Below are positions 2,065 to 62,792 of a stretch of 64,000 bases of DNA, in pieces; the stretch's first letter is position 1; each line of letters starts with the position of its first letter. Source of the DNA: Eledone cirrhosa (Eukaryota); contig OZ024740.1 of NCBI GenBank assembly GCA_964016885.1, positions 92,442,001-92,506,000 of the forward strand, given 5' to 3'. The notes below the pieces were generated by a model, which made no database searches, had not been told where the DNA came from, and worked only from the letters and a program-made list of their open reading frames with translations. Position numbers and translations under genes: made by a program.

Positions 2065-2995
2065 TATATAATGAATATAATCTGAGTTTTTGGAGTATTA
2101 ATAATAACATTCGATTCGTTTGCAATTATGTAAACAAGCCTCAATGTTATAGCCATGTCAGTAAAATGAACACTTCATTCTTGCTGTTCTGTTGGCATGT
2201 GAACAGAACTGCAGATACTAATTTTTCTGGGTATACCCTTCATCAGTACAGCTCGCTCTTCACCTGCCAAACTGTCAGAGCTAGTGTAAATATATGCTAT
2301 TTTCAAAAATAGACAGTGATTGATCGGCCTGATTTGCATATTAGCAGACTGTACTGATGAAGTGTGATGCCCAGAAACATTAGTGTCTGCAGTTCTGTTC
2401 ACATGCCAACACAAGAGCAGGAATGAAGGGTTCATTCTACTGACATGTCTGTAAAATTGAGGCTTGTTTGCATAATTGCAAACCAATCGAATGTTATTAT
2501 TAATATTCGAAAATCACAGATTACATTTATTGTATTCAGCCATGTAGGGCGAAACCAAATTCTTTTTTATTTGAATTTGGCAAAGCATACCATTTATCGC
2601 TCGTATACAGGAAACTGACTGGCCAGTCTGCTAATATGCAAATCTGGCTGATCAGTGGATCTGCTAATATGCAAATCTGACTGATCAGCCAGCCTGCTCA
2701 TATTCAAATGAGGCCGATCAGTCACTGTGAATTTTTGAAAATAGCATATATTTTAACTAGCTCTGACAGTTTGGGAGGTGAACAGTGAGCTGTACTGATG
2801 AAGGGTGATACCCAGAAACATTAGTGTCTGCAGTTCTGTTCACATGCCACCATAAGAGCAAGAATGAAGTGTTCATTCTACTGACATGGATATAAAATTG
2901 ATGCTTGTTTGCATAATTGCAAACGAATCGAATATTATTATTAATATTCGAAAATCTCAGATTATATTTATTGTATGCAGCCATGTAGAGCGAAC
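2065..2995. repeat. Local repeat cluster: one unit plus two inverted copies, with short octamer-containing (ATGCAAAT) subrepeats
   Basis: 2085-2350 is the reverse complement of both ~2350-2550 and ~2690-2990. CTGCTAATATGCAAATCTG is repeated at 2628-2700. Confidence 0.8.
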
Positions 2996-15282: not shown

Positions 15283-16500
15283 ATAACATGAAACAAAGTT
15301 CTGTTCAAATTGTTTCGTCCAAACCTAGGTTTGGAGTCTTCGGAGCAATTGTTCAATGATTGTTTACATACATTACCTTCTTTCCAACACAATAGACATA
15401 CATAAACATATGTATATATCGATGCACAGTGGGTGACATCCATTAGAATATTTTTGCATGGCAATTTAAATTCAAAAATTAAAATCATATTAAAACAAAA
15501 TTAAATTTAAAATACAACATCGGCAGTTTACGAAGATAATGCAAGGGGATAGTTTGTTAGTCATTTGAAGTAGTTAGTGCATGCAATAGTTACACGTGGG
15601 TCATGCACGTGTGTCTTATTTATATAAGATTATTGTTCGGCAAGCTGTTATATGCAATACAAGCACTTTAAGCGGGTAATCAAGAGTATTATGGGGATTG
15701 TATTGGTAAAGTATATTTTTATGTATGATAAAGAAGCTTGTGTGCAGAGAAATATTATAAATGCGAAGTAAAATAATGTTATGGTTTTTGTATACACCAC
15801 CATTTTCACAATCCACGAAACGTAATATATAGATTATATGTCCTTCCCATAATAAACGATGATTCAGTATGGGATGTTTGATGTATTAAGTTAGATTATT
15901 ACAGCTTGTTGCGGCTCAGTGTTCTTTAATCCAATTCTATAGAGCAGGTTGTTTTTGTTGCGAGAATTTACATCGTTTTATTTTCCGGAAGTATGTGTGT
16001 GATTAAGGGGAGGTAATGCGTGAAGGGAGGTAACTAGCTGATTTCTATAACTAAATTTATTATTCAATGTACACGAAAAGGTGTCTCAATTGAGTCCCTT
16101 ATATATATGGTTATATACAGTTTCCAAATTTAAGTATCCTATCTTTAAATTACAGTCTACTCCATCAATAAGTACTAAAGGTATCTATATTCGGATGATT
16201 ACTCCCTATCATAGAGTGCAACAACTGAATATTCCATATGAAGAGTCAGATCTCCATATCAATGATCTTTGTAAATGTAGTCTACTCACAGAACCTGACA
16301 GGGTCTTATTAGAAGCACGTCTATATATAACACCTGGTAAACTCTGGGTCAGCGCATGGCTGAATGCATGCCAGAGTTAAATATCTCTAGGGTAGACCAA
16401 AGAGCAATTCTTACTTACAATGTCATTAATCTGTCTATCAAGTTATACATGTATGTATAACTCATATAACACTTGTACATAATTCATTGTACTCAACATA
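15283..16500 (-). mobile_element. Inverted family-2 pLTR plus a highly degenerate GIY-YIG remnant
   Basis: 15283-15710 is an inverted homolog of 14661-15100. Upstream minus-strand translation shows weak GVIIRI and ILAT motifs. Confidence 0.5.
15308..15347 (-). ncRNA. Hammerhead remnant, CCGAAGA core, 3' side deleted
   Basis: TGCT CCGAAGA cTCCAAACC ta GGTTTGGAc GAAA CAATT. Confidence 0.55.
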
Positions 16501-16559
16501 TAGCTTATATAGCTCTTTTATGTTAATAAATTAATATTGTATTTATCTAATGATTCTAC

Positions 16560-17079
16560 TACATACACAGAACAACATTTGCACAAATAATTCAGTGTTT
16601 AAAGTTTACATATAATAATATAGTTATATAATGTAGTCTAAGTAATTGAAGGTAATTATATTAAAAGTAGATGTACATGGGGATATTTCTAGGGTAAAAG
16701 GTTTTAGATAGATGTCACGAATTGTGTTAAGAGAGGATGGATCATTGAGTGTGGAGTTGTGGTGTAAGGTGTGCCCTTGGGGTGTGTTGCTAGAAAGTAG
16801 GTCATGTATGTCAACAATCATTGAAAAATTGTTCCGAAGACACCAAACATCGGTTTGGACGAAACAATTGTAAGCTAATAAATGGTTTGAACAGAGCTTT
16901 GATTCATGTGATTTCTATATAACTGCTCTGTAGAATAACTGATGTTATTACATTGAGCTATTTATCTTACTGGTAATAAGGTAGTAATAAATTACTGTCT
17001 TTCACTGTTTAGGGTTTAAAATATATATAACTATAAACGGTTTTAGTATATATATAACCATAAATAGTATCCTTAATAC

Positions 17080-17080
<1 letters not shown>
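16560..17080 (+). mobile_element. PLE pseudo-LTR, family 2
   Basis: 16780-17080 aligns with 14960-15260 and has the same 3' end (CCTTAATAC) followed by (TA)n. Confidence 0.7.
16830..16875 (+). ncRNA. Minimal hammerhead, CCGAAGA core
   Basis: GTT CCGAAGA caCCAAAC atcg GTTTGG ac GAAA CAATTG TA AGC. Confidence 0.7.
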
Positions 17081-17110
<30 letters not shown>

Positions 17111-17121
17111 ATATATATATA

Positions 17122-17780
17122 TGATATATTGCTCTGATTATTTAATTTATTAATTCTTCATTGAGCCACAACGTGACCGGTTGCAAGACATATATATCTA
17201 TGACTTTATGTATGTGTAAACCTTATATTTAATAATCTCCCGTTCGCTTAAGATACAATTAGGCGATATTGGGCTGCGCTTTCTAGCAACAAGCCTACCC
17301 GCCGTAAGCAACTAATCACATTCTTTCTAACTTAACCACTGCCACGTCACGATTCTTAGCCATTTTTGAATCTATTTTTGGCGCGATCACTTTGGAAAAT
17401 TAAATGTCTAATTTAGAGTTCGCTCCTGATGTGTCCAAAACTGGACATTTCCTGTTATTGGATGTTTAAAAATACGGACGAAACCATGGTAGAGATGTAA
17501 TTACGGTCGTAACACATTTCTTCTCAGTTTGAATTTACACCTAATTGTGTATGGTTGAGGGTATATTTAGTTAGTTTCCACCTGCTGTTGAAATGTCGGA
17601 TACATACTCTATTTGGGCCACCGCGAAGAGGCCGCTTTCGGTTATTTGTCGAAAATTTCTTCATAGGAGCTTTTATTCATATAGCTTGGTCTAATTGATT
17701 TTTTATATGGTTAATTATGCTAATTGTGAGAAGAAATGGTATATATTTTATCTAGTGATTCTAAGGACATGATTTATGTG
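17122..17780 (+). mobile_element. ~660 bp non-coding HHR-bearing unit (retrozyme-like or solo pLTR), family 3
   Basis: Homologous over its length to 33545-34205 (minus) and in part to 24270-24690. Begins at (TA)n. Confidence 0.7.
17423..17494 (+). ncRNA. Type I hammerhead (A9 mutated)
   Basis: CTC CTGATGT GTCC...GGAC GAAA CCATGG TA GAG. Confidence 0.7.
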
Positions 17781-19096
17781 ATATATATACAATGTTATAT
17801 TTGTGTATATGGAGTGGGTAACCAAGACAGCGTCAACGTGTATATAAATATGCACATTTTTAATATATGAATATGTAATTTGATTTCCAAACGTAATTGG
17901 ATCTTCAACATAAGCTGGGTATATGATCTAACCATATACAGAGGAACACGTATTTTATGCGCTTATACACTCATTCGTTTATTCGTGTACTCTGAAATTG
18001 AGTTACTAATTAGTATAAAAATAGTGCCCATGTTAGTAGGTAATTAGTGTATATATTAAGAAAGGTACGATACATTATACCTGTGTGAGCAAATGTATAT
18101 ATGAATATTAATATATAAAGCTCTCAACCTGCCAGAAAGAAGAATTTCCTTTTAATTCGGTATTTGGTCCTAGTTCTTCATCAGTTGATGTGTATTCAAT
18201 TTAAACAACATGATTAATAGATCAATGTGTTGTTACGGTTATTAATCATACATATGAAATAGATCCGGTTTACATGTTCGTTATTCTTAACATAATGACT
18301 TAATATGTCATATTCCTTCCGGAACACGTAGCATACAATTTTTATTTTCTACTGTAAGTCACATTTTTACTCGTTTTTTTTTTTTTTTTTTTTTTTAATA
18401 CTTGATAAGCGAGACAAACAATACGCTCCAGGAATGCACGCATGTTTTGTTGGATATACGAGGATTCGTATAATTATGAGGTTCGATGCACATTCAACAT
18501 TGAATAATTAAGCAAACAATGAATTCATTTTGTGTGTCATTGTTTGTTGATCTGGCAATTTCACATAAATTGAATGCACTTCATATCGCAAAATACGACG
18601 TAGATAATTTCAATGGTATCTTTCTACTTACTCAAGGATTTCCTAAAATAATTAATTAATTAATCCAAAATGTTAAGTGCTTTCGTAATCAATTAAAACT
18701 GAAACAAGACGAGAATGATTGAAGGTTGAACATCCATTAAAACATATGCTAGAAGGGCTTTATTAGCAGCGGAATCTCAAAGCTATAGATCATGGGACAA
18801 TCTATAATCTAATTGATACAATCGCAGTAAACGTTCAGTAAACGTTCAGTTACATATTTAACAGCACATGCTGTTATCGACACATCCAACCTACCAACCG
18901 GAAATGTATAATAAGTTGAAATAAAAACCAGCGGGGGCGTGTACATTCCTTGGCAGCATGACCCTCCCAAAATATAACAATATATATATATATATATATG
19001 TGGGGATGTTTGTGTGATTATTGTATGCGTATGTATGCGTTTGCGTCTGTGCTTTGCTTCTCTGTGCATGTATATATGAATTCAACTAAGAGTGTG

Positions 19097-19154
<58 letters not shown>

Positions 19155-19169
19155 GTTTTAATATAGATG

Positions 19170-19220
19170 AGATTCTACAGGACTAGAACTGTTTCATTCA
19201 TTAGAAATCATCAGGAATCT
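19170..19220 (-). ncRNA. Type I hammerhead
   Basis: Reverse complement of 20519-20569. Confidence 0.8.
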
Positions 19221-19877
19221 GGGTATCAAAAAATAAAAATGGTATTTATAGGTCTCTACAAGTGGTAGGAGAGGGTGGGGAGTGGGATGGGTGTTGGTCA
19301 TTGGGTGATAGAAAAGGGAATTCATTAAAAGCTAATTCTACAAAGCTATAGTTTATTTTTATTTATTTATGTTTTTAGAGTAACAAGGGCAGACAGAATT
19401 CTATAAACAGGTTCCGGATGGCATACCATTCCTTGTCATTAAGTTTCCCTTAAGCTAACAGATGTCTATAAGATCAGTGGGGGGTCAGTCATGGTCGATA
19501 GTATTAAAGAAAAGGGAGATTCTTTAAAAGCTAAAATCATTAAGGTTCTACTAAGTGACAAGGTTTAGAGAATTCTGTAGACAGATTCAAAATACTGAGT
19601 GCATATCTTACAATTATCTTCGAACTTCTCTTAAACTAATCAACTATATGCCAACAATCAACAGACACATTCACAAAAAAACATACTGACTCACACACTC
19701 ACGCGCAACCATAAACACACATACACATACACATATACATATATATCTATGTGTATTTGTGTGTATATGGATACACATGTATATTTGTGTTTGTATGTAT
19801 GTGTGTGAGTGTATTTATATGTGTATATATGTGTGTGTGTGTGTGTACATATATGTATGTGTGTGTGTATGTATATA

Positions 19878-19942
<65 letters not shown>

Positions 19943-20518
19943 ATGTATGTGTATGCATATAAATATATTTATATATATGTGTGTGTGTTTTTTATGTGTG
20001 TATATGTGTATGTGTATGTGTGTTTATGGTTGCGCGTGAGTGTGTGAGTGAGTATGTTTTTTTGTGAATGTGTCTGTTGATTTTTGGCATATAGTTGATT
20101 AGTTTAAGAGAAGTTCGAAGATAATTGTAAGATATGCACTCAGTATTTTGAATCTTTCTACAGAATTCTCTAAACCTTTGTCACTTGGTAGAACCTTAAT
20201 GATTTTAGCTTTTAAAGAATCTCCCTTTTCTTTAATTCTATCGACCATGACTGACCCCCCACTGATCTTATAGACATCTGTTAGCTTAAGAGAAACTTAA
20301 TGACAAGGAATGGTATGCCATCCGGAACCTGTTTATAGAATTCTGTCTGCCCTTGTTACTCTAAAAACATAAATAAATAAAAATAAACTCTAGCTTTGTA
20401 GAATTAGCTTTTAATGAATTCCCTTTTCTTTTAACCAATGACCTACACCCATCCCACTCCCCACCCTCTCCTACCACTTGTAGAGACCTATAAATACCAT
20501 TTTTATTTTTTGATACCC

Positions 20519-20569
20519 AGATTCCTGATGATTTCTAATGAATGAAACAGTTCTAGTCCTGTAGAATCT
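20519..20569 (+). ncRNA. Type I hammerhead
   Basis: AGATTC CTGATGA tTTC taat GAAt GAAA CAG ttctagtc CTG TA GAATCT. Confidence 0.82.
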
Positions 20570-20651
20570 CATCTATATTAAAACTGTTATACTCTGCTAT
20601 GTATTGAGTACCTTACTTACTGTGGTTACCTCCGATTCAACCCGGAATAAC

Positions 20652-20716
<65 letters not shown>

Positions 20717-21184
20717 AGCAGCCAGATGTGTGGGACTGGTCACATTATCACGTTGAATGATACCAGGTTACCCAAAAGATGATTATATGGGATTTAAATA
20801 CTAGGATTTGTTTTAATATGTTGGCGCGCATGTATATAAGCGTGCGGGTGTGTGGGTGTGCATATGCATACATGTATGTGTATGAGTATATAACTATAAA
20901 TGTGGAAACACAGACACACTTCAGAAATATACTCACAGACATACATTCCGCACAAATACAAATACATTTACACAAACACAAATACATTCACACCAACACA
21001 ACCACGTATACATTCACACAAACAAACCCATACCCATACAGTGTAGCAATTGGAACGCAATTTGCTCTTTTGCTATAGTTTTTCATCCTCCCCATTCTTC
21101 CCTTATCACTCATACATTCACACATACACATACAAACACATATTGTATGACGGACGAAAATCGCTGAAATTTATATATAGATAA

Positions 21185-21315
21185 TTGTATCTACTTTTTA
21201 GCACAACGCCAGCATTTACCCAGTGCATTACTCGTGATTTATTTTATCGACTCCGTAATGTTGAAAGGCAAAGTTAACCTCGGCAGCATTGCAGCTGAGA
21301 ATGTAAAGGGCCATA
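21185..21315 (-). mobile_element. SINE, 3' part
   Basis: Reverse complement of the 3' two-thirds of 1797-1990, diverged. Confidence 0.75.
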
Positions 21316-21746
21316 AGTCTATGATTCAAAGCTTAACGAACTACCGATACTGACAATCCTACCGCACGTTAATGAAACCACATCATAAACTATGTCATTA
21401 GGAATGATTAGAAGATTATCGATAAGAATATTAGAAATTAGGAAACTTTTGCATATAAAAGAATAGCTTGTCGTTGAAACAGTTCTCCATACGAAAGGGG
21501 GTAAGCAGAGAATCCAGAGGATTTCAATCCAACATTTTGATATAATATGTTTGAACGAGTACAGCTTTCTCGAGCTTATAAATAACCAAAATTGCATGTG
21601 TTCGATGAGACATATACTGAGTTTGATGATGTTTTTCCGCGGAGGCCAGATAATAATATTTGTCGTGTCTCGAATAATCAGTTTTTTAATTGGACTGACG
21701 AGACGCTGCAATCGACATGATCAAGGTCGCAATATTCATTTTAATA

Positions 21747-21932
21747 TAATTGTTTCTACTTTAGGCACAATGCCAGCAATTAACCAGTGCATTACTGGTA
21801 CTTTATTTTATCGACCCCGTAAGGATGAAAGGCAAAGTCAACCTCGGTGGGATTTGAACTCAGATCGTAAAGGGACGTAACTATGCTGGAAATCATGGCG
21901 TCCGATCCTCCACCGACACTGCCAATCCACCG
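21747..21932 (-). mobile_element. SINE
   Basis: Nearly full reverse complement of 1797-1990. Confidence 0.85.
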
Positions 21933-22704
21933 ATTGAGAAACGTTGCTGCTGAAGGCACAGTCTTAAGTTCGTCCACTTTGAATAGGTATCGACGAATTT
22001 TGAAGAGTTGGCAATACTCTGAAAATAATCAGTAATCATAATGTATTTGTTGGAGGTTATATATCGGTTTCTCATTTGAGTTTAATATCTTTTTATTTTT
22101 ACATTAACATTATTTGTATTTCCTTTAGTTTCTTTGGCTTGATATATGGTTTAATGTCCATTTATAATGTCACTTAATGTCTAAGATTTTGACCTCTCCT
22201 TTCTGGTTTAATCAAGTTGATCAGGTCGTTAATCTGGATTGCGTTTTAGATTTAGTTAGATTCATATTATTGAGCGTTTTGTATTATTGTCGTGGATATT
22301 AGTATGTCATATGAAGTACTTAATAGGTACCAGGTTGTTTCTAACCGAAACTGTGTGTACTGCTATAGAACATCCAGTTTAATATATTGCTTTTATACAT
22401 TAGGTCTTTGGAGCGTGGAGTAACATATTAGATTATGAACCTATGCCTGAATTTGTGAGTTTGTTTATCGTATTCTACTGGTATTTAATTTCAGTTTCAG
22501 TCAATTGACAGTCATGTTTACGTATATATGTATAACATACATTGATATCATGTTTCCTTAGGTCAAGGATATTATACAACGGATTAAATTTACCATTATG
22601 GGATCGTACACATTTGCATTTCATCCTATTCTGAGATAATTTTGGGAATGAATAATTTATATAATGTTAAATTCAAATCTATTTACCTTTCTTATGTAAA
22701 CAAA

Positions 22705-23930
22705 TACGATTCTAGCTGAATTTATATTTGTATTAAACTCCAGAGTCTTACATTTAACCTGTTAATAATTCTATTGGCAGATTAATTGCATAAGTTTATT
22801 TAAAAACATTCCTGGTTGAGTGCTTATTCGATCCGTGCTATCTATGCAATTTGTTTTATGATATATACATACTGAATTCATTTGCCAACACCTGGGGAAT
22901 TTCACCTTGTGAGTTACACATGTGCTTTTACAAAGTTCTGCGTCACTCACAATGTTGGTTACAGAGCAAAATACATGTTGATAACGTGATATTCCTTGTT
23001 AGATCTTTATGTTGAAAGTTTATAGTTTTAAGCAGACAATATTATTGTTTTAGGTGTGATAGAAACCCTGCATTTGGATTTCACCATCAATTCCAATTGG
23101 GTCCAGGTCTGTTTTTATCATTTATTCTGTTTGCCCTGTTTTGCTTGATTTATTTTTTGGCTTAGGTGGTTAATGCCGTCTTGACAACTTTTCAGTTTGT
23201 ATGAGGTTTTAACATATTGTTTAGCTCCTGTTTTCTTAACTATTGAACAGCTTGCCAGCATTTCTACGATTTTCAGTTTCGTCTCGCTTTTTCTACCAGC
23301 CGAAATACGATTCTCGCTGAATTTATATTTGTATTAATCTCCCGACTCTTACAATTAACATGTTAATAATAATATTGACAGATTAATTGCATAAGTCTGT
23401 TTTAAAAACTATCCGGTTGTGTGCTTATGTGATTTGTGCTATCTATGCAAGTTTTCGTATTATATACACATACTGAATTCATTTGTCAAAATCTGGGGCA
23501 TTTCCCTTGTGAGTTACACATGTGCTTTTACAAAGTTCTGCGTCACTCACAATGTTGGTTACAGAGCAAAATACATGTTGATAACGTGATATTCCTTGTT
23601 CAATATTTATGCTGAAAGCTTATAGTTTTAAGCAGACAGTATTATTGATTTAGTTATCATAGAAACCATGCATTTGGATTTTACCCTCAATTCCAATTGG
23701 GTCCATGTCTGTTTTCTATCATTTATTTTGTTTGACCTGTTTAGCTTGACTTGTTTTTTGGCTTATGTGGTTAATGCTTTCTTGACCATTTTTCAATTTG
23801 TATGGCGTTTTAACATATAGTTTAGCTCTAGTTGTCTTAACTATTGGATCGCATGCCAGCATTTCTACGATTTTGCGTTTCGTTTCGTTTTTTTACCAGC
23901 CAAAATACGATTCTCGGTGAATGTATATTT
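22705..23930. repeat. Tandem repeat, ~600 bp period (2 units plus start of a third)
   Basis: TACGATTCT..GAAT.TATATTT recurs at ~22705, ~23306 and ~23907. The block at 22910-23000 recurs at 23510-23600. Confidence 0.9.
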
Positions 23931-24001
23931 ATATGTAGTATATAAATATATATATATATATATAGTATATATATATATATTGTATATATATATAGTATAT
24001 A

Positions 24002-24192
<191 letters not shown>

Positions 24193-24269
24193 ATATATAC
24201 TATATACTATATACTATATACTATATATATGTATATACTATATATATATATACTATATATATACTGGTT

Positions 24270-24690
24270 GCCAAAACATATATATCTGTGACTTTGTCTA
24301 GTTTAGTGTATATGAACATATTTATATTTGATAAACTCCAATAAGGTTGAGATGCAATTTAGGCAATACTGGGCTGCGCTTTCTAGCAACCAGCCCACTC
24401 GCCGTAAGGCACCAATCACATTATTTCTGAATTGACCACTGCCACGTCAGACTTCTTAGACATTTTGAATTCGTTTCTGGCGGGGATCATTTAAGAAAAA
24501 TCTGTGTCTAAGTGAGTTTGTTTCCTGATGAGTTCGTAGCTCGAGAATTTATCCTTGACAGGATATTGCCGAAAGTGAACGAAACCCTAAAGTTTAGAAA
24601 CCTAATCCTGGTATGTGTATGTGCATGTTTTCTTCTAAATTTAATTTTATACATAATTGCTCAAGTGTTTTAAAGAGCAAGTGTTAAAAC
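24270..24690 (+). mobile_element. Diverged family-3 HHR-bearing unit
   Basis: Shares GGGCTGCGCTTTCTAGCAAC...GCCGTAAG...ACCACTGCCACGTCA with 17270-17350. Flanked by (TA)n. Confidence 0.7.
24521..24600 (+). ncRNA. Type I hammerhead, extended stem II, stem III partly decayed
   Basis: TTTC CTGATGA GTTC...GAAC GAAA ccctaaagtt TA GAAA. Confidence 0.7.
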
Positions 24691-24745
24691 GATCAAATTC
24701 TAGTTTAAAACATTTAATAGTATATATATAGTGTATATATATATA

Positions 24746-24805
<60 letters not shown>

Positions 24806-24850
24806 AGTATATATATATATATATTATTTATGTGTACAGTATATATATAG

Positions 24851-24923
<73 letters not shown>

Positions 24924-26368
24924 TAACATATTTGTTTCGACACACGATTTCATATGAAAAACTTCGCAAAACAAATATATATATATATATATAGAGAGAG
25001 AGGAATAGAGAGAGTGAGAGAGAGCGAGAGAGCTCAGAAGTAGTGATATCGAAAAGTGCTTTCTCTAGGATACCGTTTGAAATATTCGCAATTAAACACG
25101 CGCGCGCACACACACACATACACACACGCATACCCGCACTCACACGCACTCATATATATATATACAAATATGTGTGTGTTAATTTGTGTGATTTTCTTTG
25201 CGTGCGATTTTATATGTATGTACATGCATATATTAACATATGCACATACATTCTTATCGTAGATGTCATCGATTAACAATAATCCTCAATATGCCTTTTA
25301 CTTTAATAAGTAACAATGCAAAATCGGAAATCAAATCTGTTTCACTGAAATTAACATTTATGGTATCGTTTCTGTTTTCTAGTATGTGAAGTTTAAACAA
25401 TATAATTATGCGGGTCACCTTTGCTTCGACTCGAATTATTCAATGTAATTCATTTATGGCGATTTAATCATTTATATACATTTTTTCTTTCGCAATTGCT
25501 TTGGGCTTCGCCAATAGTGAAATCACAATGAGTAATGTAATACTAGAAATTGTTGTCAGTTTAATTATATTGATATATCGAAGTTTGATTATTTGAATTT
25601 TTCTTTCGGCATCTAGAACATAATTGAATTATAACAACATTTTGAGAGTGCAAATAATCTCGAGGCAATTTGAAATAAAATTAATAATCATTAGAATTTT
25701 TAAAAAATGACACACTATATTGACACTAGGACATTTCACTCCACATTCTTGAGAAACGTGAAAGATACTCACTCTGTGTGAGTTGATTAAACTATGAAAT
25801 ATTCCTTCTTATATCGTATTTGCAACAACACCGATCGCTATTTTTCATTCATATATGCTTTTCCTTTCGCTGTGACCTGTCATTTTATCTTACCTTACTG
25901 CTATCCTCTTTCTCTCTCCCCCTTCTCTCTCCTTCTCCCTCTTAGTTTCACTCAGCCGCTCTGCTAGTCACCCTCTCTCGGCTAGCCTCTTCATCACACT
26001 TTCACTCACTCACTCTCTGCTACTCACCCTCACTCTCATTTCCTCCATCGTCCCACGAAATACAAAATTCTTTCCTCGCTCACATTCGCACGGCCAAGAT
26101 TTGTATTTTGCCTTCTCGTCAATATTCGCAAGTTCTTGTTAAAAATGAATCATTGACTTGATTTTCTAATTTTTCCTCTCTTTACGTTGCCTCACCATTC
26201 GTGCTTGTTTACCAGTCTCTCTTTCTACACCCAACTCTTTTTATCCCAATAACTTAATTTAGTCATTGTATTGCCCTAGCCGAAGGAATATGGCCTGTAA
26301 TGCGAAGAAATACCTATGATGGCTAGTAGACCACTGATGATGGATAGTCCTGGCTTCTATTTCTAATT

Positions 26369-26405
<37 letters not shown>

Positions 26406-27549
26406 CCTGTGGGTACGTGGCGGGGGGGGGGGGGTAGAGACATAGAGATAGCGAGAGAGAGTTACGTCTATGAGGGTGTGTGTGTACCACTCCGTACAAA
26501 TGTGTTTGTAATTAAGGGTGTCAATTACCCCATATTCAAAAGAAATGCACCCAATCTACACCAGGCTCATCCACAACATTACGCAAACATAGACACGACA
26601 CATATATTCGATTACATCGACAGACCAGTACAGGTCAAGGAAGAACCACACGTATCATGTTGTTTTGATTCATTGATATGCCCCAGGCTGATAATTGGTG
26701 TACATCGCTTTAGGTGCCTGGAAGCATCTCTGGGAGCATATCACCTATTACTGTAAGTGGGCAAGTGGAACGGCATCATAGACGAACGCTGTAATTGTGT
26801 GTGAGAAGTAGTTACGAACGAGGGGAGGATGCAAAAGCCGCAAGTACTTTATCCGTGTGACACATACCGACTAGATTTCCTTAATGCGCATTTCTGGACC
26901 TGGAAGAACTATATAATGCCATCTACATCGTGTAAAGATACTTATTTATTATTAGGACAGTAGATAAGTTTATTATATCTTGAGCACTTTTCCGAACGAT
27001 CACCTATTTAGATCACATTTTTGTGGTGCGCATGGTCAATCTAGATACATTTTAATGGCTCGTTACTAAAAGCACAACACGTTATTCCCGACACGTACAC
27101 CTAACATGGAAAGGGGCACAATTTTAGTTAAGTGTAAGTTGTCAAGGTTGTTCGAAAATAACAGTGGTTGTTGTGCTCCCAAGAGAGAGATTAGAATAGT
27201 TTGAATAGATGTTTAAACAAGTAGCATTATGAAAACACATAAAGGAGAAGGTGATATAAGCTAAACGAGAAGAGGTGCAATTAGTGAGAATGGTATTACA
27301 CCATTTCTTCAATGCGAAACACGATGGTGGCATTCTAAGGTATAAGACACGAACTGTAAGTCAGGAGGGAACGAAATATGTTACTTGAGTCCGTGTGGCC
27401 GTGGACAGTATGCTGAACAAGACAACCATACAATTTATGCGATATATCATAGTGAGTATAGGATGTAAACCTAGTTTCGATGTGTGATATGATCAATTTA
27501 GATATATCGAGATCTTTCGATGGTATCGACCATCAAAACTTGGGAGGCT

Positions 27550-28240
27550 GTGCTGATGGCAGTTGGATTTGGTACCGTCTTCAGAGGCTGGATCGATGCA
27601 ATTCACAGCAGCATCTGCTCAGTTGTTAAAGTATCTGGCCACATTTTCGGAAGGTTTTACATCTAGCGATCGGTCTTTCAAGATTGCCCTCCCCCTCCCT
27701 TATGTACGTATTGTCTCTCAAGTTTATTTTCATTACTGCAGAAACTGAAGCTATAGTAGTTCGTCCCTCTCGAACCACGACGAGCAAAAACTGCGTCAGC
27801 ATATGTAGACGAGTTCTCTGTGGAGTGGTCGAACACCTCACTGATTAACGTGGTCAAGGAAGGGCAGGAAGCTCTCCTCTGTCAGGTGTCTATGGTGAAA
27901 GTGGATGTGTGTTTGATGAGGCATATATGATTGAAGACAGACACATTTCGCTTCCGCCAATCGCTCAACGTTTACAAGTTTCGCGTGGAAACGAGGGTGA
28001 GGATTTAGAAGGACGTACAGGCCTGCCCCCGCTGATGCTCTCCAGTTGTGGGGTTGTTCAAGATTAATGGAATTCATGAGACGCCAATGGGTGTTCCTTC
28101 CCCTATTGAGAGATTTTCCTTTTTGTAATACATTTGTTTATTGCTATTGTTTTTATATTCATTAACTCGATGTCAATGTAACTCCTGATTGTCCCTGTGT
28201 GTTTTATTTTCCGCATAAGCACTTGTGTCCAATAAAGAAG
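27550..28240 (+). pseudogene. Degenerate 3' end of a Tx1/L1-like LINE
   Basis: Weak motifs (KIALPL; EGQEALLCQVSMVKVDVC) and a terminal AATAAAGAAG. Recognised by resemblance only. Confidence 0.35.
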
Positions 28241-28261
28241 TTGTTATATATATATTATAAT

Positions 28262-28392
28262 TATTGTTTTCAACTTTTCAGCACAAGGCCATCAATTACC
28301 TCAGTGCATTACTTGTACTTTATTTTATCGACACCGTAAGGATGAAATACAAAGTTAACCTCGGCGGGATTTGAACTGATAACGTAAAGGGC
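28262..28392 (-). mobile_element. SINE, 5'-truncated
   Basis: Reverse complement of the SINE core and tail. Confidence 0.78.
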
Positions 28393-28419
28393 AACAACTC
28401 CATGATTATAGTTATAGTT

Positions 28420-29560
28420 TTTTTTCTTTTTGTTCAGCTCTTCTAATACTGAAAATGTAGCTCTTCTCTACAAGTGAACAGAGGTAGCACCCCTTATTTT
28501 TCGAGTAGCTTCCAGATTATTCGCTCTGTTCCAAGCAATGCTGTCCTTTGTAAGTGTTCGATCTGTATGTCTATTCCTACTTTTTTTTATGTAGTTCTCG
28601 ATATCTTTATTAACATTTTAAGCACGCTATTCAGTGACCACGACTGCTTAACCTCCCAAGCTAATCTGCCATTTCTATGAAAGTTTTTTCTCTTTTATCT
28701 TATGAATTGTTATCTGCTCGACAGGCTATGCCTATGTTCAAACGTTCTTTGAATTCTTATCTTTTAATGCAATATATGTTATTCTATGCTCAATCTCGCG
28801 ACGAACGTTCTGGAAGGACCTGATGGCAGTCAACATCACCTGGCACGGTCTCGAAAATGTTGCCACTGATCGTGACCGTTGTCGAGTATTTACTGCTCGA
28901 TGCGCCGAACGGCTAGGACGAATCTACGACTAAGACTATGCTCAATACTATAGTCAAACAAATGTTCTGCTGTTTCGAGTGGATATTTTCCACAAAATGC
29001 CCACCTTGCTATTTTGTCGTGACGTCTCTCATATTCTTTCTCGGCTATAGGTGTGGTAATATGTCAAATAGTTCCTCCAGTTTACACTTATCACTTTCTT
29101 CATTGTGGTCTATTCTATACTTAATGTAATTCGTTTTTAGTGCTTGTTCATGAACAGGATTCTTTTTCCAGTTTTAGATCAATTTTAGCCATACGTAAAC
29201 CTCATTTCTTCTCTGTTTCCTATCTACACAACTTCTATGAAATTATCGATACACACTTTTTTCCTGTCCATCTAATTAGTTTCATCCATTTTCAAGTGTA
29301 TCTTTGTACTGTGTTTCGTTTTGCAATATTCTATGTTGCCAAGCTCTGACACCCTTACTTCCATCAACAAGTTTTATGTTGAATTTGTTATGCACCGCGA
29401 CGTGTTATTTTCTTCTCGACTAGTGCTGTCTTCGCACCCAATCAGTCTCTTCCTCCACTTTTTTATTGTTATACCTTTACTGTCTGTGTCGCTTCTTGTG
29501 TGAAATACCCCATATCTAGTCATTATCTTTCTATTTTTGGAATATGCTTTTAGAGAGTGT
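28420..29560 (-). pseudogene. R4/Dong-like RLE non-LTR retrotransposon, 3' remnant
   Basis: Minus-strand translation: IAEKEYERRHDKIA, IACRADNN and C-terminal HLQRTALLGTERIIWKLL*. Confidence 0.65.
28795..28935 (+). mobile_element. Short 5'-truncated RTE-like LINE 3' end nested in the R4/Dong remnant
   Basis: 11 bp TSD CTATGCTCAAT at 28784-28794 and 28936-28946. Encodes KDLMAVNITWHGLENVATDRDRCR. Short CTAAGA-type tail. Confidence 0.7.
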
Positions 29561-30329
29561 GAGTGTGAGCCTTTTAATTTTAATGATCTTAAGATTCTAG
29601 GATTTTTTCCTTTTTTTCATCTTCTTATATACACACTCACACTCTCTAAAACCATATTCCCAAAATATAATTTCTTTTACTACTGTTACTACTTTTATAC
29701 TATTGCCAATCCCATATAATTTGTCTCTGGCTTACAATTCACCTCTTCACCACACCCATCTGAACTCTTGACAAGTCCATTTCCACAATTGAGATACACA
29801 CACATATTTACAGAACATTTCCTTTGACCATAAAAGCGATTTTGTTCTATATGAGAAAACACACCTACCACCACTGCTGCTGCTAAAATCATGGCTACAC
29901 ATCTCTCTCTCTGAACACAAAAGTTCATTTTCCAGTCTCCTTCTCAACAAGGAAGATAAAAAGGACTTACTGCAACACATGATTCAACATTTTTTATTTT
30001 TAGTTTTTAATTCTCATTAATTTTATTTAATTTTAATACTCAACATTTGATTAGATCAATATTACTGATACATCGAAACCGGTTATAAATATTATACTTT
30101 ATATACATTATAAAACTATTTTTTAAAAGAATGGTTCCTCTCATTTTTTCAATAATTTCATTTTGAGAATCATAGAAATGAAAAAAAAGAAAATCATATA
30201 CTTAAAAATAGTTTCCGTAATATTTCCACTTACTCTCTTTCTCTACAACCACTCTTTTGTAAAGAACCTTTCTTCCCTTTTCAAATATATGTATATATAT
30301 ATATATATGTGTGTGTGTGTATATATATA

Positions 30330-33540
<3,211 letters not shown>

Positions 33541-33544
33541 TTTT

Positions 33545-34555
33545 AAATCATGTGTACAGAATTATTAGATAAACAAAATATATACTCCATTTCCTGTGCC
33601 AAACAGCACAATCAACCATATAAAAAATCAATTATACTAAGCCATAAGGATAAAAGCTCCTATGAAGAAATCTCCGACAAATAAACGAGAGTGGCTTCTT
33701 CGCGGTATCCACAGCAGGTTATTTATCCAACATTTTGACAGCATGCATAAATCGACCAAGTAAATAATTAACCATATGCAATTCGGTGTAAAATCAATCA
33801 TAGAAGAACTGTGTACATACCGTAACTATATGCCTACCATGGTTTCATCCGTATTTTTATATATCCTATTAATAGGAAATCCATTGAGTTTGGAATCATC
33901 AGAAGATAAACTCAAAAATAGACACTTAGTATTCCAAGCCGATCGCGCCAAAATTGGATTCAAAAATGGCTAAGAATCACACTATGGCCGTGGTCAAGTT
34001 GGAAAGAATGTGATTGAATGTTGACGGCGTGTAGGCCTGTCGCTCGAAAGCGCAGCCAAATATCGCCAAATTTAATCTCAACCTTACGGGAGATTATTAA
34101 ACATAAAGGTTTACATATACATAAATGTATATATGTTACAACCGGTCACTTTTTAGCTCTATGAAGAATTAATAAATTAAATACTCAGAGCAGTATATTA
34201 TTATAAATCATGTCTACAGAATTATTAGATAAACAAAATATATACTCCATTTCCTGTGCTAAACAGCACAATCAACCATATAAAAAATCAATTATACTAA
34301 GCCATAAGGATAAAAGCTCCTATGAAGAAATCTCCGACAAATAAACGAGAGTGGCTTCTTCGCGGTATCCACAGCAGGTTATTTATCCAACATTTCGACA
34401 GCATGCATAAATCGACCAAGTACATAATTAACCATATGCAATTCGGCTATTTATAATAATATATTGCTCTGAGTATTTAATTTATTAATTCTTCATAGAG
34501 CTAAAAAGTGACCGGTTGTAACATATATAAATTTATGTATATGTAAACCTTTATG
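33545..34555 (-). mobile_element. Family-3 unit in partial tandem (660 bp period) plus a short inverted piece
   Basis: 33545-33787 recurs at 34205-34447. 34460-34555 is inverted relative to 34105-34200. Confidence 0.85.
33831..33906 (-). ncRNA. Type I hammerhead
   Basis: Minus: CTT CTGATGA tTCC...GGAt GAAA CCATGG TA GG; stem I weak. Confidence 0.75.
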
Positions 34556-35320
<765 letters not shown>

Positions 35321-38300
35321 AAACGGAAAAAATGAAACTAAATTTCATTTATCACACTTAGTACGGCTGTTACTTAAATATAAGTACGTGTACGTATATA
35401 CATATATGTATACAGACGTACAGTAGTATGTATATATATATACATACATGCACACATATATATATGTACGTACGGATTTACCGAACATTTATTATAATGC
35501 TCGTTGTGTTTGTAAACAAACATCCCGAATTAAGCCGTACAGTGTTTAGCAACCATCGTTTCCCTTTTGTCCAACATTGACTAAGGAACCATGTACTGTG
35601 GAATTAATTCAGAACCATAATCATCATATAATACTGAATACGAACCATCTATAGAAATATGAAATCAAATTATGGTTAATTGTCAATTGTTTATTTCGAA
35701 TACGTAAAACACAAAAGAAAGAAAGCAGAAAGGAAAAAAAAAGAATTTATTTATATCCTCTCGATTGCACGGTATTTCATATTTGGTATAAGAATACGGC
35801 TATCTGCGCTTCCATGCATGTGGTTGTATACTGAGGAAGGTTTCCAGTAGCGGATAAACTATTGAATAGAATGTAGTTCTATTACACTCCAAAGGAAAAT
35901 AAATACTTTGAATGTTAAACTAAAGGCGCGAACTTCATGTAGTTTGAACTGTATATCATATTTTGCAAACTCGAGTTCACTATCAACGGTAAACTTGGAA
36001 ATGTCACAGCGTTAAATAGAAAAGCCACATAAAATATAATAGAGTTTAAAATATCAAGTTTCAGAATTTCCATAATCGTCTTTTTTCAAACAAACTGAAA
36101 TCAAATATACTTTTCAAAAAACATAATTGAAAATAAAATGTTAGCTTCCAGATTGTTTAAAATCATTAAAATATATTTATTTCATTTAGAAAATATTGTA
36201 TCCGAATTTTAATATATATATATATATATATGGTAAAGCATAAAACTAAAGATAACACTTATGACAAGCTGACATGATTGGCATAGAACAACTCATTCCA
36301 CATTTTGAGGTTGTTCATATTTTGATTTTAAATTTATACTATAAATATGAAAATAAACAATGGAATTGTGGAAAATATTAATTTTATAAGACGTCAAATT
36401 TTAACTCCCATAAAATATTTATTAAATATATTTTTCTATTATTTACATACACATGACTCATTTTTATTCAATCTGATAATCCCGTTTTATTGTTTTAAAG
36501 AGCAATGAATAAGTTTATTTTTCACATGACAATTAAATCTTCATATTGATTTTCAATAATAAAATCAGATGCCTGATATTATGACACAGTAAACTTTGAG
36601 TGGGAAGTGTATCGATGTTATCACATTCAAATTTAAACAATTAAATCTAGCATCAAATCATGCTACACAGACGTTGATATCATTATAATAGTCTACGCAC
36701 ATACAATGGTATTAAAAATGGTTCCTTTAATGTTACTTATGGAGAGACGTCGCCTCTCGCCTATTCTAACTTACCATCTTAAACAAAATGCTTCCCAATT
36801 GATTGAATAGTTTGCATTGTCACTAAATTCATATAAGAAATGCACTGATATCAGAGAATATATTTTATAATTCTAAACGAACATTCTAGCATCAAAAGAT
36901 ACACAATTGTTAACCAAATGCATCTTATAATTGGCCACACGATAACCGTATTCTTTGCCCATATTAAATCATTTAGCCCGTCCAACATTTCACTACAATT
37001 GATAATATTGTTAATAATTATAGCGCAATTTTATGCCGTATGCAATGAAAACCAAAACGCCAACCCACCATAAAAAATGAAGGCAACATTCTGAAATACT
37101 CATAAAATATATTTCTAATTAAATATAAATACTTGAGTTATTTAAGGGCTACGTGTATGTATATGCATATATAGTGTACAAGAGTAATTCATAACTAATA
37201 AAATAGATAGAAAGGTTAGTATAAAATGCATACTTCCCTTCTTTGAGGGAATGTGGGTGTACAGCTGGTGCGTATATAATTCCGAAAGACTCAATAAGTG
37301 TATATTTTATGTAGCATTGCAATATATGGAAAACTTCGTAAGTTTAACTGCGTTTTGTTTAAAAACTACTATGATTGAATATGTATCGATATTGAGTTTA
37401 GTTCTCAATTAAATAGTCGTCTGTTAGCAGTTACTAGTGTAACAATAAACTATATTCTACATACATCGATTATCGTTGTATGTATTATAATTATAGTACA
37501 AACAATGCAGAAAAAGGATCATATGTATTATATTAATTTCCCTATGATCTTGCCATTCCTACACAAAGCGTGCCATACACAATGAACAAACACCATTACG
37601 CATATGAAAATATCAAAAACTGAAAGAAAAAAAATTCAAAGATGAACAGAATAATGAAAGATATATTTGCCCGAACATACAATGTTTTGCTGGTTGGAAC
37701 AACATTCCCCTGAATTATTGACTTAACAATTATTCCCACGTTGAAGCAATACTTGATTAGATAGCACTGTACCAAGTTGTAATCCCTAGTGGTGATGGAA
37801 AGAAATATAACTTTATTTTCTATTTGATTTCCCTACTGAGTCACCTCGTATTTGTGTTTGCCTATGTTCTAAGACGTGTTATACAAATATTGATAACATT
37901 ATGTGCAGCAATTAGTCACCTTCCTCTCCACATACCACGTTCTTTATTTAATATTTCTGGTTCACCTCTCGCATATCTTTGAATCCATTACGAGATAAAA
38001 AGCAACCGATTGATAAAAGTATGCAAAAAATAAAGGGAAAATAGTGAGCAATAATTGGTGCGGTACAAAGAGATGTGAGTTCGAATCCTACTGTCAAAGC
38101 TGTTTGATAACTTTCGCATCCGGAAGCGTGTAAACCTTCCTGTTAAACTTTGAATATTAGTCAATAGACCTGGGTTGAATCTTCTAACTGTAAATTAATT
38201 TCAATAATGTAGATATATGTATATTTAGCTGTCGAAACGGCCGGAGCTCAGCCGTCGGGGTCATAACTACTACAAAGACACACGCACATACGCACACACG

Positions 38301-49421: not shown

Positions 49422-50368
49422 TCTATATATATAAAACTGTGTTTGTCTGTCTGTCTATCGATTTTTAGCACACATCTCCTCTTAGAATCTCTGACGGAAT
49501 TGCACCGAAATTGCTATACTTGTACATTGAGCCCTAGCGAAGACATCGGAAAAAGATATTTCAAATTCACCCACCCTATGTGACGAAATCGAATATAATG
49601 TATCGATTTTTGAGCGTAAGTTATCAGTTATTTCCATTTGTTCTGTTTACATTGAGCGTCTTACGTAAAAAATTACGCTGGCTTTCTCAGCGTTTAAAAT
49701 GACATTAACACAATACACGAACAGTTGTCGAGCCAGCAAAATATTGACCTGCAAAATTCATCAGTTCGAACACTAAGCTTCCGTTTTGCTTCATTTCCAT
49801 TTAAAAGCATTTTAAAACAATATGTTTACTTGAAAACAAGTCTATTTAAAGACTACGTAAAACAAGCAAATATTTCGTCGTTAGGCGTGCAGACAGACAG
49901 TCGTGCAGACAGACAGTCGTGCAGAGAGGTGATATACGCGTGCAGACAGATAGTCGTGGAGAGAGGTGATATAGGCGTGCAGACAGACAGTCGTGCAGAG
50001 AGGTGATATAGGCGTTCAGACAGACAGTCGTGCAGAGAGGTGATATAGGCGTGCAGACAGACATAACTGATAATTTAGTAACGCTAATGTTTTTCTCTGC
50101 GCTGCAGTGTTTACATTTTCGATCTTTGTTAATAAATAACCAGTGCAGTTTCTATCCCCAGCATCCTCTTTTGTTATAACATTCGGGTTATCGTTATGTT
50201 TTCTTAACTTCATAAGGCATATTGTTGGTTGAGGGAATATTAATCAAAAACACCACATGCAAGTCTGCACAGTAGGCACTACAGTTTTTAAGCCAAGAAA
50301 GAAACTTAACATTGTAACTTTAACACAGCTACTGAGCGACCCCGAGCAACGCCGGGCTTTACTGCTAG
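49422..50368 (+). mobile_element. Non-autonomous Helitron with internal minisatellite
   Basis: 5' TCTATATATATAAAA; 3' hairpin CCCGAGCAACGCCGGG then CTAG; inserted between A and T with no TSD. A ~33 bp GTGCAGACAGACAGTCGTGCAGAGAGGTGATATAGGC array lies at 49885-50062. Confidence 0.9.
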
Positions 50369-50961: not shown

Positions 50962-51932
50962 CTAGCAGTAAAGCCCGGCGTTGCTCGGGGTCGCTCAGTA
51001 GCTGTGTTAAAGTTACAATGTTAAGTTTCTTTCTTGGCTTAAAAACTGTAGTGTCTACTGTGCAGACTTGCATGTGGTGTTTTTGATTAATATTCCCTCA
51101 ACCAACAATATGCCTTATGAAGTTAAGAAGACATAACGATAACCCGAATGTTATAACAAAAGAGGATGCTGGTTATAGAAACTGCACTGGTTATTTATTA
51201 ACAAAGATCGAAAATGTAAACACTGCAACGCAGAGAAAAACATTAGCGTAACCAAATTATCAGTTATGTCTGTCTGCACGCCTATATCACCTCTCTGCAC
51301 GACTGTCTGTCTGCACGCCTATATCACCTCTCTGCACGACTGTCTGTCTGCACGCCTATATTACCTCTCTGCACGACTGTCTGTCTGCACGCCTATATCA
51401 CCTGTCTGCACGACTGTCTGTCTGCACGCCTATATCACCTCTCCGCACGACTATCTGTCTGCACGCGTATATCACCTCTCTGCACGACTGTCTGTCTGCA
51501 CGACTGTCTGTCTGCACGCCTAACGACGAAATATTTGCTTGTTTTACGTAGTCTTTAAATAGACTTGTTTTCAAGTAAAAATATTGTTTTAAAATGCTTT
51601 TAAATGGAAATGAAGCAAAACGGAAGCTTAGTGTTCGAACTAATGAATTTTGCAGGTCAATATTTTGCTGGCTCGTAATTTTTTACGTAAGACGCTCAAT
51701 GTAAACAGAACAAAGGGAAATAACTGATAACTTACGCTCAAAAATCGATACATTATATTCGATTTCGTCACATAGAGTGGGTGAATTTGAAATATTTTAT
51801 TTTTCCGATGTCTTCGCTAGGGCTCAATGTACAAGTATAGCAATTTCGGTGCAATTCCGTGAGAGATTCTAAGAGGAGATGTGTGTCAAAAATCGATAGA
51901 CAGACAGACAACCACAGTTTTATATATATAGA
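50962..51932 (-). mobile_element. Non-autonomous Helitron, same family, opposite orientation
   Basis: Near-identical reverse complement of 49422-50368, with more minisatellite units and a ~50 bp deletion. A|T insertion. Confidence 0.9.
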
Positions 51933-62726: not shown

Positions 62727-62792
62727 TATTTTGTCTGAAGAAGGCATAACATATTGTTAATATGATATCCCTGAAATATATATAATGAAATA
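62727..62792 (+). ncRNA. Minimal hammerhead
   Basis: TATTTTGT CTGAAGA AGG...CCT GAAA TATATA TA ATGAAATA. Confidence 0.8.

Follow-up and report, generated by a model that had tools for sequence, protein, structure and literature searches.

The stretch of DNA considered here, a window of 64,000 nucleotides from Eledone cirrhosa (contig OZ024740.1, positions 92,442,001 to 92,506,000 of the forward strand), contains a noncoding repeat of 660 bp that bears a type I hammerhead ribozyme motif and lies inserted between two (TA)n arrays. By "the window" we mean this whole stretch, and coordinates without a locus name are positions within it. The whole insertion occupies 33537-34559 and amounts to 1.38 units with a period of 660 plus an inverted arm of 113 nt. 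The parts of the locus are listed below, with the microsatellites as reported by Tandem Repeats Finder (TRF).

33419-33536, no strand: (TA)n microsatellite of the left flank, the target (TRF, period 2, 59 copies); the unit begins directly after it.
33537-34196, minus strand, which is the sense of the hammerhead-bearing RNA: full 660-bp unit; the left (TA)n adjoins its sense 3′ end, termed "B".
33821-33916, minus strand: type I hammerhead motif, consisting of stem I, CUGAUGA, a stem II of ~49 nt, GAAA, stem III, and a GUA site.
34197-34446, minus strand: 5′-truncated copy of unit positions 1-250, which follows the full unit head-to-tail as a second unit and stops short of the hammerhead.
34447-34559, plus strand: short inverted arm of 113 nt, in which ~14 nt from the end of a unit run on into 99 nt from the start of the following one (the "tail"); the right (TA)n adjoins its sense 3′ end, termed "A".
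34552-35321, no strand: (TA)n microsatellite of the right flank (TRF, period 2, 386 copies).

An original prediction, made from the letters of the window, had described tandem units with a period of 660 and an inverted tag at this place, and alignment bears this out. The direct repeats 33537-33786 and 34197-34446 lie 660 bp apart with 98% identity (245/250), while 34461-34559 aligns in reverse complement to 562-660 of the unit with 97% identity and the preceding 14 nt continue the unit end. The inverted arm also matches 17121-17202 directly. TRF did not report the tandem array because the longest period it covers is 500. Turning to the ribozyme, the tandem unit has CUGAUGA at 33902-33896, GAAA at 33846-33843, and a palindromic CCAUGG stem III at 33842-33837, all on the minus strand, and the GUA site puts the predicted cut between 33835 and 33834. 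As the motif lies beyond the end of the partial second unit, the tandem locus has only one hammerhead. Three substitutions are private to the window hammerhead: those at 33903 and 33832 weaken stem I, and the one at 33891 breaks the fifth pair of stem II. Contigs of three sequencing runs (one sample of one study, contig kind unspecified) carry the family letter at 33832, 33891, and 33903, and the depth of these contigs over the unit follows an uneven, repeat-like profile; they gave no informative joints or ends. The minimum-free-energy (MFE) fold of the window copy does not form a hammerhead, whereas those of typical family copies do. Since there is one hammerhead and it carries three private substitutions, the window locus itself would not release a unit-length RNA. 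The window copy is a dead end, with its core kept, stems I and II weakened, and one hammerhead, and nothing about the locus as a whole, a decayed copy of a repeat within a microsatellite, points to a host function.

When six unit variants were compared by BLAST with the whole window, the superfamily was located at three sites only, namely the tandem insertion and two further copies at 17117-17789 and 24263-24658, close to where the original prediction had placed them (17122-17780 and 24270-24690). All three sites adjoin (TA)n arrays in the TRF output (17080-17129, 23924-24263, 24721-24925, 33419-33536, and 34552-35321). The two related copies and their motifs are as follows.

17117-17789, plus strand: solo full unit of an older, larger subfamily, in the orientation opposite to the tandem unit and with 78% identity to it.
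17412-17505, plus strand: hammerhead region of the 17117 copy, with CUGAUGU (A9 to U).
24263-24658, plus strand: diverged, truncated relative between two (TA)n arrays, with 73-76% identity.
24525-24584, plus strand: hammerhead core of the 24263 copy, with GUUC/GAAC closing pairs and stem III lost.

Each copy had been credited with one type I hammerhead with a long stem II. The motif is in all three, but the 17117 copy departs from the core with its CUGAUGU and the 24263 copy no longer has a stem III. The accompanying remark that the closing pairs of stem II differ from copy to copy is accurate, the pairs being TCC/GGA in the tandem unit, GTCC/GGAC in the 17117 copy, and GTTC/GAAC at 24525-24584. 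In terms of overall likeness, the full unit of the tandem insertion is 93-97% identical to ~40 scored genomic copies, and the 17117-17789 copy is 90-93% identical to other copies in the genome.

The repeat belongs to a large family. First-look searches of the 3.0-Gb genome returned 3,381 candidates with the window unit as query and 4,221 with the older subfamily as query, and 40 candidates were scored in each full-length unit search. A 22-mer from the 3′ half of the ribozyme has 904 exact matches (359 with C11.1 and 545 with U11.1), against 0 for reversed controls. The young subfamily, for which copies have a median identity to one another of 96.6%, was followed with a 25-mer that has 35 exact genomic matches, and this number places the window tandem copy in a small, recent burst within a much larger, older superfamily. 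The unit has a GC content of 35%. It had been called a self-contained hammerhead repeat free of open reading frames (ORFs), and this description stands: the longest stop-free frames in dimerised units run to 54-150 codons and differ among 27 copies, and a 134-aa stop-free frame of the unit has no Pfam match. A coding capacity was rejected on these grounds, and an origin from a tRNA or short interspersed nuclear element was rejected as well after ARAGORN found nothing in the dimerised unit.

Insertion architecture was analyzed in 75 blocks from 75 nonredundant loci, which comprise 30 loci from each full-length search less duplicates and 20 from the 22-mer search that were taken in listing order and not chosen by structure. 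Thirty-seven blocks are two-armed with both sense 3′ ends outward, 38 are one-armed, and none has its 5′ ends outward. The outer 3′ ends sit at two fixed UA-rich sites, either at the unit end (B) or 94-105 nt into the next unit (A, which is the tail), while the inner 5′ ends vary. Among the two-armed blocks 26 combine A with B, one has B at both ends, A never occurs at both, and in the other 10 one end or both lie elsewhere, in some cases only a few bases outside the A bin. The one-armed blocks end at B in 31 cases, at A in 4, and at other positions in 3. The window insertion conforms exactly to this rule with a B arm of 910 nt on the left and an A arm of 113 nt on the right. In the 20-locus sample, 3′ ends fall at s116-119 (11/28) or s666-673 (15/28) and elsewhere in 2/28, and 33/44 block ends lie within 15 bp of a (TA) run of at least five repeats, as compared with 293/2000 random positions in the same loci. 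Among the ~200 matches to the 22-mer that were listed, all 13 of 13 inverted pairs are minus-then-plus, and 11 same-strand pairs lie 646-677 bp apart. These 11 pairs, together with loci L003, L008, and L112, make up a minority of loci with tandem units that each carry a hammerhead, to which the window locus with its 1.38 units does not belong. Arms often exceed one unit, as in L004 with 326+660+94 nt. Within an insertion of the young subfamily, units and arms are 98.0-98.9% alike compared with the median of 96.6% between copies, and this closer identity fits one event from one template.

These ends allow the possibility of a repeat that moves or expands at the DNA level to be judged, whether as a satellite growing by unequal crossing-over, a Helitron, or a TA-targeting foldback or miniature inverted-repeat transposable element (MITE). 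The inverted arms do superficially resemble terminal inverted repeats, and the target of Helitrons resembles the (TA)n/AT target seen here. The arms, however, vary on the inside and are fixed on the outside, the reverse of what terminal inverted repeats show, and Helitron-like termini are seen at neither end. Nor does a satellite agree with hundreds of dispersed loci with short arrays and no long satellite blocks in the sample. In view of the ends of the 75 blocks the Helitron, MITE, and satellite readings were rejected, and we consider a DNA-level origin scarcely credible. Twin priming on a single RNA, which is known for L1, was also tried as an explanation for the inverted arm. It predicts a tail-bearing arm that starts at the unit boundary; this fits the window copy and L006 and does not fit L004, L017, or L021, so twin priming is at most a candidate mechanism here.

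The ends recall instead the Penelope-like elements (PLEs), whose insertions are described as having partial tandems, an adjacent inverted 5′-truncated copy, an extension at one end, and a bias toward (TA)n (Craig et al. 2021, PMC8557442). The original prediction had recognized PLE integration architecture without any reverse transcriptase (RT), and the 37 of 75 blocks with two arms and outward 3′ ends, none of the 75 having an RT or endonuclease (EN) inside its arrays, agree with it. This likeness raises the question of whether the copies are a separate family at all or simply the truncated 3′ ends, the pseudo-long terminal repeats (pLTRs), of an autonomous RT-coding PLE. Heavy 5′ truncation is common among PLE insertions, which carry hammerheads in their pLTRs (PMC8557442), and fragments of PLE ORFs lie within 3 kb in 5/20 sampled loci, where tblastn with 4 PLE ORFs gave hits that are all at least ~700 bp outside the arrays. 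The structure of the copies speaks otherwise. The repeat period is the 660-bp unit itself, with full units directly abutting in L003, L008, and L112, and no RT or EN separates units in the 75 blocks. The ~200 listed matches to the 22-mer include no same-strand hammerhead pairs 2-6 kb apart, as a pLTR-ORF-pLTR arrangement would give. In addition, a PLE at L061 that has unit copies beside it ends at its own 3′ terminus, with a short (TA) run before the unit, and unit-like sequence is absent from the interior of the 45 PLE loci searched with a unit profile. We regard the reading of the copies as pLTRs of a coding element as largely refuted and very improbable.

What PLEs does the genome contain? 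None of the 106 ORFs of the window (13 + 93) has a Pfam domain, RT included. Elsewhere, a search for GIY-YIG gave 10,596 first-look candidates, and all 150 of those scored exceed the cut-off; two open frames, of 477 aa and 938 aa, encode RVT_1 together with GIY-YIG. In the 938-aa frame a C-x4-C-x2-C motif immediately precedes the GIY-YIG core, and a linker of the CX2-5CxxC type has been suggested to direct (TA)n targeting (PMC8557442). Of particular use is the degraded RT-EN element L061:3810-8274, ~1 Mb from the window, which lies in a (TA)n tract, where 456 bp of its 3′ end are repeated in inverted orientation (96.5%) with an extension of ~30 nt on that side only. Two units of the superfamily stand directly beside it with the short (TA) run between. 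Real PLEs in this genome thus use the same target and leave the same footprint as the unit. In search of an autonomous partner, five unit variants were compared by BLAST with 30 GIY-YIG loci and with 13 long-ORF PLE loci, and the unit profile was run over all 45 loci (~245 kb). This yielded no RT-coding element that shares sequence with the unit, the 45 loci being a small sample of more than 10,000 candidates and the negative evidence correspondingly weak; the BLAST and profile matches in these loci are adjacent, separate insertions (L039/L061 and L073). By eye, the 3′ ends of three (TA)n-inserted PLEs have no likeness to the unit ends. Where the original prediction spoke of a retrozyme family that uses the local PLE machinery, the family does fit a non-LTR retrozyme or PLE derivative. 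The word "local" does not hold, because the window ORFs are without Pfam domains and the ORFs with RT and GIY-YIG are elsewhere in the genome.

The hammerhead can be followed across the family as well. We aligned 64 distinct hammerhead regions taken from genomic loci with a regular expression, and 59 of the 64 have an intact core, a count that is partly so by construction because the expression already demanded most of the core. The core is kept in ~28/30 units of the young subfamily. Standard pairs fill 88.4% of the pair cells in the 64 regions as compared with 19-43% when the partners are slid, and changes on both sides are seen in 8/16 pairs. None of 500 shuffles reaches these values, although covariation counts overstate the number of independent events because the copies are related by descent. 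Subfamilies that are ~70% alike keep the core while their helices change: the closing pairs of stem II appear as GUCC/GGAC, GUUC/GAAC, GCUC/GAGC, and AUCCG/CGGAU, and stem III appears as CCAUGG or CCCAUGGG. The older, larger subfamily has the textbook CUGAUGAGUCCG...CGGACGAAAC, with A10.1-U11.1 in one sublineage, and the youngest subfamily, which includes the window tandem copy, has U10.1-U11.1. Counted over the 64 distinct regions, the 10.1-11.1 pair is GC in 24, AU in 7, and UU in 26. Helices and core are conserved with compensatory changes. The hallmarks of a type I hammerhead seen in the family are CUGANGA, GAAA, UH, three helices, and an open stem I.

Folding agrees with the motif and adds a prediction about how it would act. 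Three typical copies adopt the three-way junction of the hammerhead in their MFE folds. Stem III consists of an A-U pair plus CC/GG around a 2-nt loop and cannot stand alone, and a cofold of two copies forms an intermolecular stem III through the self-complementary ACCAUGGU at −49.2 versus 2 × −19.4 kcal/mol. With a stem III too weak on its own and a self-complementary sequence within it, the ribozyme would act as a double hammerhead. The Rfam model Hammerhead_1 (RF00163) aligns a canonical genomic copy correctly and scores it at 18.7 bits against a threshold of 34, a low value that results from a 37-nt insertion in the loop of stem II and the minimal stem III. A whole-unit circular fold was discarded as evidence, for the z values of two copies (−3.0/−3.7 sense and −0.7/−4.5 antisense) are too weak and strand-unspecific.

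Taken together, the stretch in the window is probably an old insertion of a 660-bp noncoding hammerhead repeat that was likely copied into (TA)n by the RT and endonuclease of a PLE, that is, a nonautonomous PLE derivative of the non-LTR retrozyme type. In the cycle we envision, the minus (ribozyme) strand would be transcribed, and pairing between two hammerheads, by way of the self-complementary ACCAUGGU stem III, would let them cut multimeric transcripts into 660-nt monomers. The monomers would then be circularised by a host ligase, a step that is part of the published retrozyme model (Cervera and de la Pena 2020, PMC7229834). The PLE endonuclease would break (TA)n, and complementary DNA would be primed from both DNA 3′ ends at the two UA-rich tracts of a circular or multimeric RNA. 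Such two-end priming would account for the inverted arm, for the tail, and for arms of more than one unit. Since the arms continue past the cut site and are longer than one unit, their template would have to be an uncleaved multimer or a religated circle.

A more specific version of the integration step can be offered tentatively, and we hold it to be possible rather than probable. In this version, integration of the Penelope type starts from a double-strand break in (TA)n that is primed from both 3′ ends on one circular or multimeric hammerhead RNA, and the use of two UA-rich tracts ~100 nt apart would explain both the PLE tail and the inverted arm, features that have long lacked an explanation. 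The distribution of ends among the two-armed blocks (26 A+B, 1 B+B, and 0 A+A among 37, the other 10 ending elsewhere) means that the tail-bearing end is almost always accompanied by an inverted tail-less partner. Efficient self-cleavage may be dispensable under this scheme, since the youngest burst spreads with U-U at 10.1-11.1.

A number of observations weigh against assigning the ribozyme and the PLE these roles. Insertion ends do not coincide with the hammerhead cut site, and therefore the limits of the element are not set by the ribozyme. In most insertions the hammerhead is single, the tandem pairs being ~11 among the ~200 matches listed. The youngest subfamily, with 26 of the 64 distinct regions, carries the U-U mismatch at 10.1-11.1. 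Mutational work on hammerheads leads one to expect that U-U at this position lowers activity, and therefore the ribozyme may not be needed for spread. The motif is also below the Rfam gathering score in the window as it is in the canonical genomic copy, and in the window Rfam reports no hammerhead at the gathering score, nor at E ≤ 10 in 16000-36000. Lastly, with no partner that shares its sequence among the 45 PLE loci, the case for mobilization by PLEs comes from architecture and a shared target alone.

Several of these points lead to the main rival, in which the hammerhead is a passenger or relic. Here the same repeat is mobilized by PLEs from a linear read-through template, RT template switching supplies the extra length, and no circle is formed. 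We judge this distinctly less probable than the explanation with an acting ribozyme, though it is the competitor to be taken most seriously. Insertion 3′ ends at two UA-rich tracts rather than at the cut site, the single hammerhead of most insertions, and the U-U of the youngest burst all suit it. The literature adds that Naiad PLEs, despite having no hammerheads, spread successfully (Craig et al. 2021, PMC8557442) and that only 1/9 Xenopus dimer constructs was cleaved (Li, Clavereau and Pollet 2026, bioRxiv 10.64898/2026.07.22.740005). What a passenger would not lead one to expect is a core and helices kept with compensatory changes, including GC to AU at 10.1-11.1, across subfamilies ~70% alike, which argues for selection on the fold. 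Furthermore, arms of more than one unit recur even though the sources are mostly 1-2.6 units and 5′-truncated, and such length is easier to sustain from a circle.

How does a PLE-mobilized hammerhead repeat of this kind compare with known systems? It resembles the non-LTR retrozymes of animals in being a noncoding unit of 35% GC with one type I hammerhead, in its head-to-tail copies, and in the coexistence of PLEs. These retrozymes were described in 2020 as units of ~170-400 nt (Cervera and de la Pena 2020, PMC7229834), and the present unit is larger. The original prediction had generalized this to a family larger than described retrozymes, a claim that fails now that consensus lengths of 51-972 bp, with a mean of 650 bp in ray-finned fishes, have been published (Li et al. 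2026, 10.64898/2026.07.22.740005); 660 bp is within that range. Amphibian retrozymes are reported to act as a double hammerhead or dimer (PMC7229834), and the same is predicted here, as stem III is too short for a monomer. Li et al. define an "active" retrozyme as head-to-tail tandem units that each have a hammerhead. The arrays of the present family, unlike those of animal retrozymes, are short (mostly 1-2.6 units) and usually have one hammerhead, and the family differs further in its strict insertion into (TA)n, its inverted second arm, its tail of ~100 nt, its unusually long stem II (~49 nt), and in being known here from genomic sequence alone. For Xenopus, the same authors argue that retrozymes are nonautonomous derivatives of PLE pLTRs (Li et al. 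2026). The family studied here is unlike that case in that unit-like sequence is inside 0/45 PLE loci, the adjacent insertions aside.

The comparison with endonuclease-positive PLEs of the Neptune/Nematis type, which have the CX2-5CxxC linker (PMC8557442), is closer in terms of ends. The likeness extends to pLTR-like partial tandems, an adjacent inverted 5′-truncated copy, a tail at one end, the insertion bias to (TA)n, and a hammerhead in the repeated part. In contrast to PLEs, the unit has no RT/GIY-YIG ORF, the whole element is the 660-bp repeat, and no sequence similarity connects it to any of the 45 PLE loci examined. The tail is also longer, at ~94-105 nt versus 30-40 bp in PLEs (PMC8557442).

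Hammerhead satellites of newts, schistosomes, and cave crickets have been described as long arrays of type I motifs with a weak stem III that act as double hammerheads in tandem transcripts. The present family is like them in its unit of a few hundred bp, its type I motif with a weak stem III, and its predicted double-hammerhead action, and unlike them in being dispersed in short arrays with retroelement-type ends. The newt satellite is among the systems named by Cervera and de la Pena (2020, PMC7229834).

In terms of novelty, the kind of element is already known, and the idea of retrozymes as PLE derivatives is already in print (Li et al. 2026). Strict (TA)n targeting, the two-armed A+B rule, and a tail of ~100 nt are not described in the available portions of the retrozyme literature, and a full-text search joining retrozymes with TA microsatellites found no paper with the latter term; targeting, rule, and tail are the known PLE footprint nonetheless. 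The value of this family is in the detail. Its short copies, hundreds to thousands in number and with base-exact ends, lend themselves as natural data to studying how tandem, inverted, and tailed insertions are built by PLE enzymes and whether spread requires a hammerhead.

Other arrays were encountered in the sampled loci. A PLE with the 938-aa frame lies at L064:3373-9498 between direct repeats of 1.07 kb (97.8% alike), with its left end against a (TA)n run, and the motif scan gave no hammerhead in these repeats. L065:6701-7619 is a two-unit hammerhead array with a 459-bp unit in (TA)n, which lies just past the 3′ terminus of a PLE whose open frame is 844 aa long, and this family likewise has a stem II of ~50 nt and a GUA site. 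Another hammerhead-bearing tandem family forms a four-unit array with a period of ~490-510 bp at L073:8168-9700.

The window holds further motifs and repeats. Two compact canonical type I hammerheads diverge from each other ~550 bp apart at 2190-2250 (minus strand) and 2795-2850 (plus strand), with the motif CUGAUGA-AGGGU..ACCCA-GAAAC..GUC and a good stem I of 12 bp. The same ribozyme is also near PLE ORFs in L041/L075 and L072, and the pair probably represents a two-armed insertion, truncated, from a different PLE family. More motifs of the form CUGAUGA/CUGAAGA...GAAA are at 33322-33358 (plus), 62735-62776 (plus), 62008-61967 (minus), and 63840-63804 (minus). These have stem II hairpins of ≤11 bp followed by AU-rich sequence and no evident canonical stem III, and their status as ribozymes is only putative. 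L029 and L066 also contain the 63840 type, there in the form of a small foldback element within (TA)n. At 22702-23893, a unit of ~600 bp occurs twice in tandem with 84-93% identity and ends at the (TA)n array 23924-24263; the motif scan gave no hammerhead core there, and it may be another noncoding repeat of the PLE type. An inverted repeat at 19154-19566 and 20173-20585 has 413-nt arms that are 98% complementary and 606 nt apart, with TA/TG microsatellites alongside. Arrays of one and the same 37-bp minisatellite lie in opposite orientations at 49902-50063 and 51267-51502, ~1.2 kb apart.

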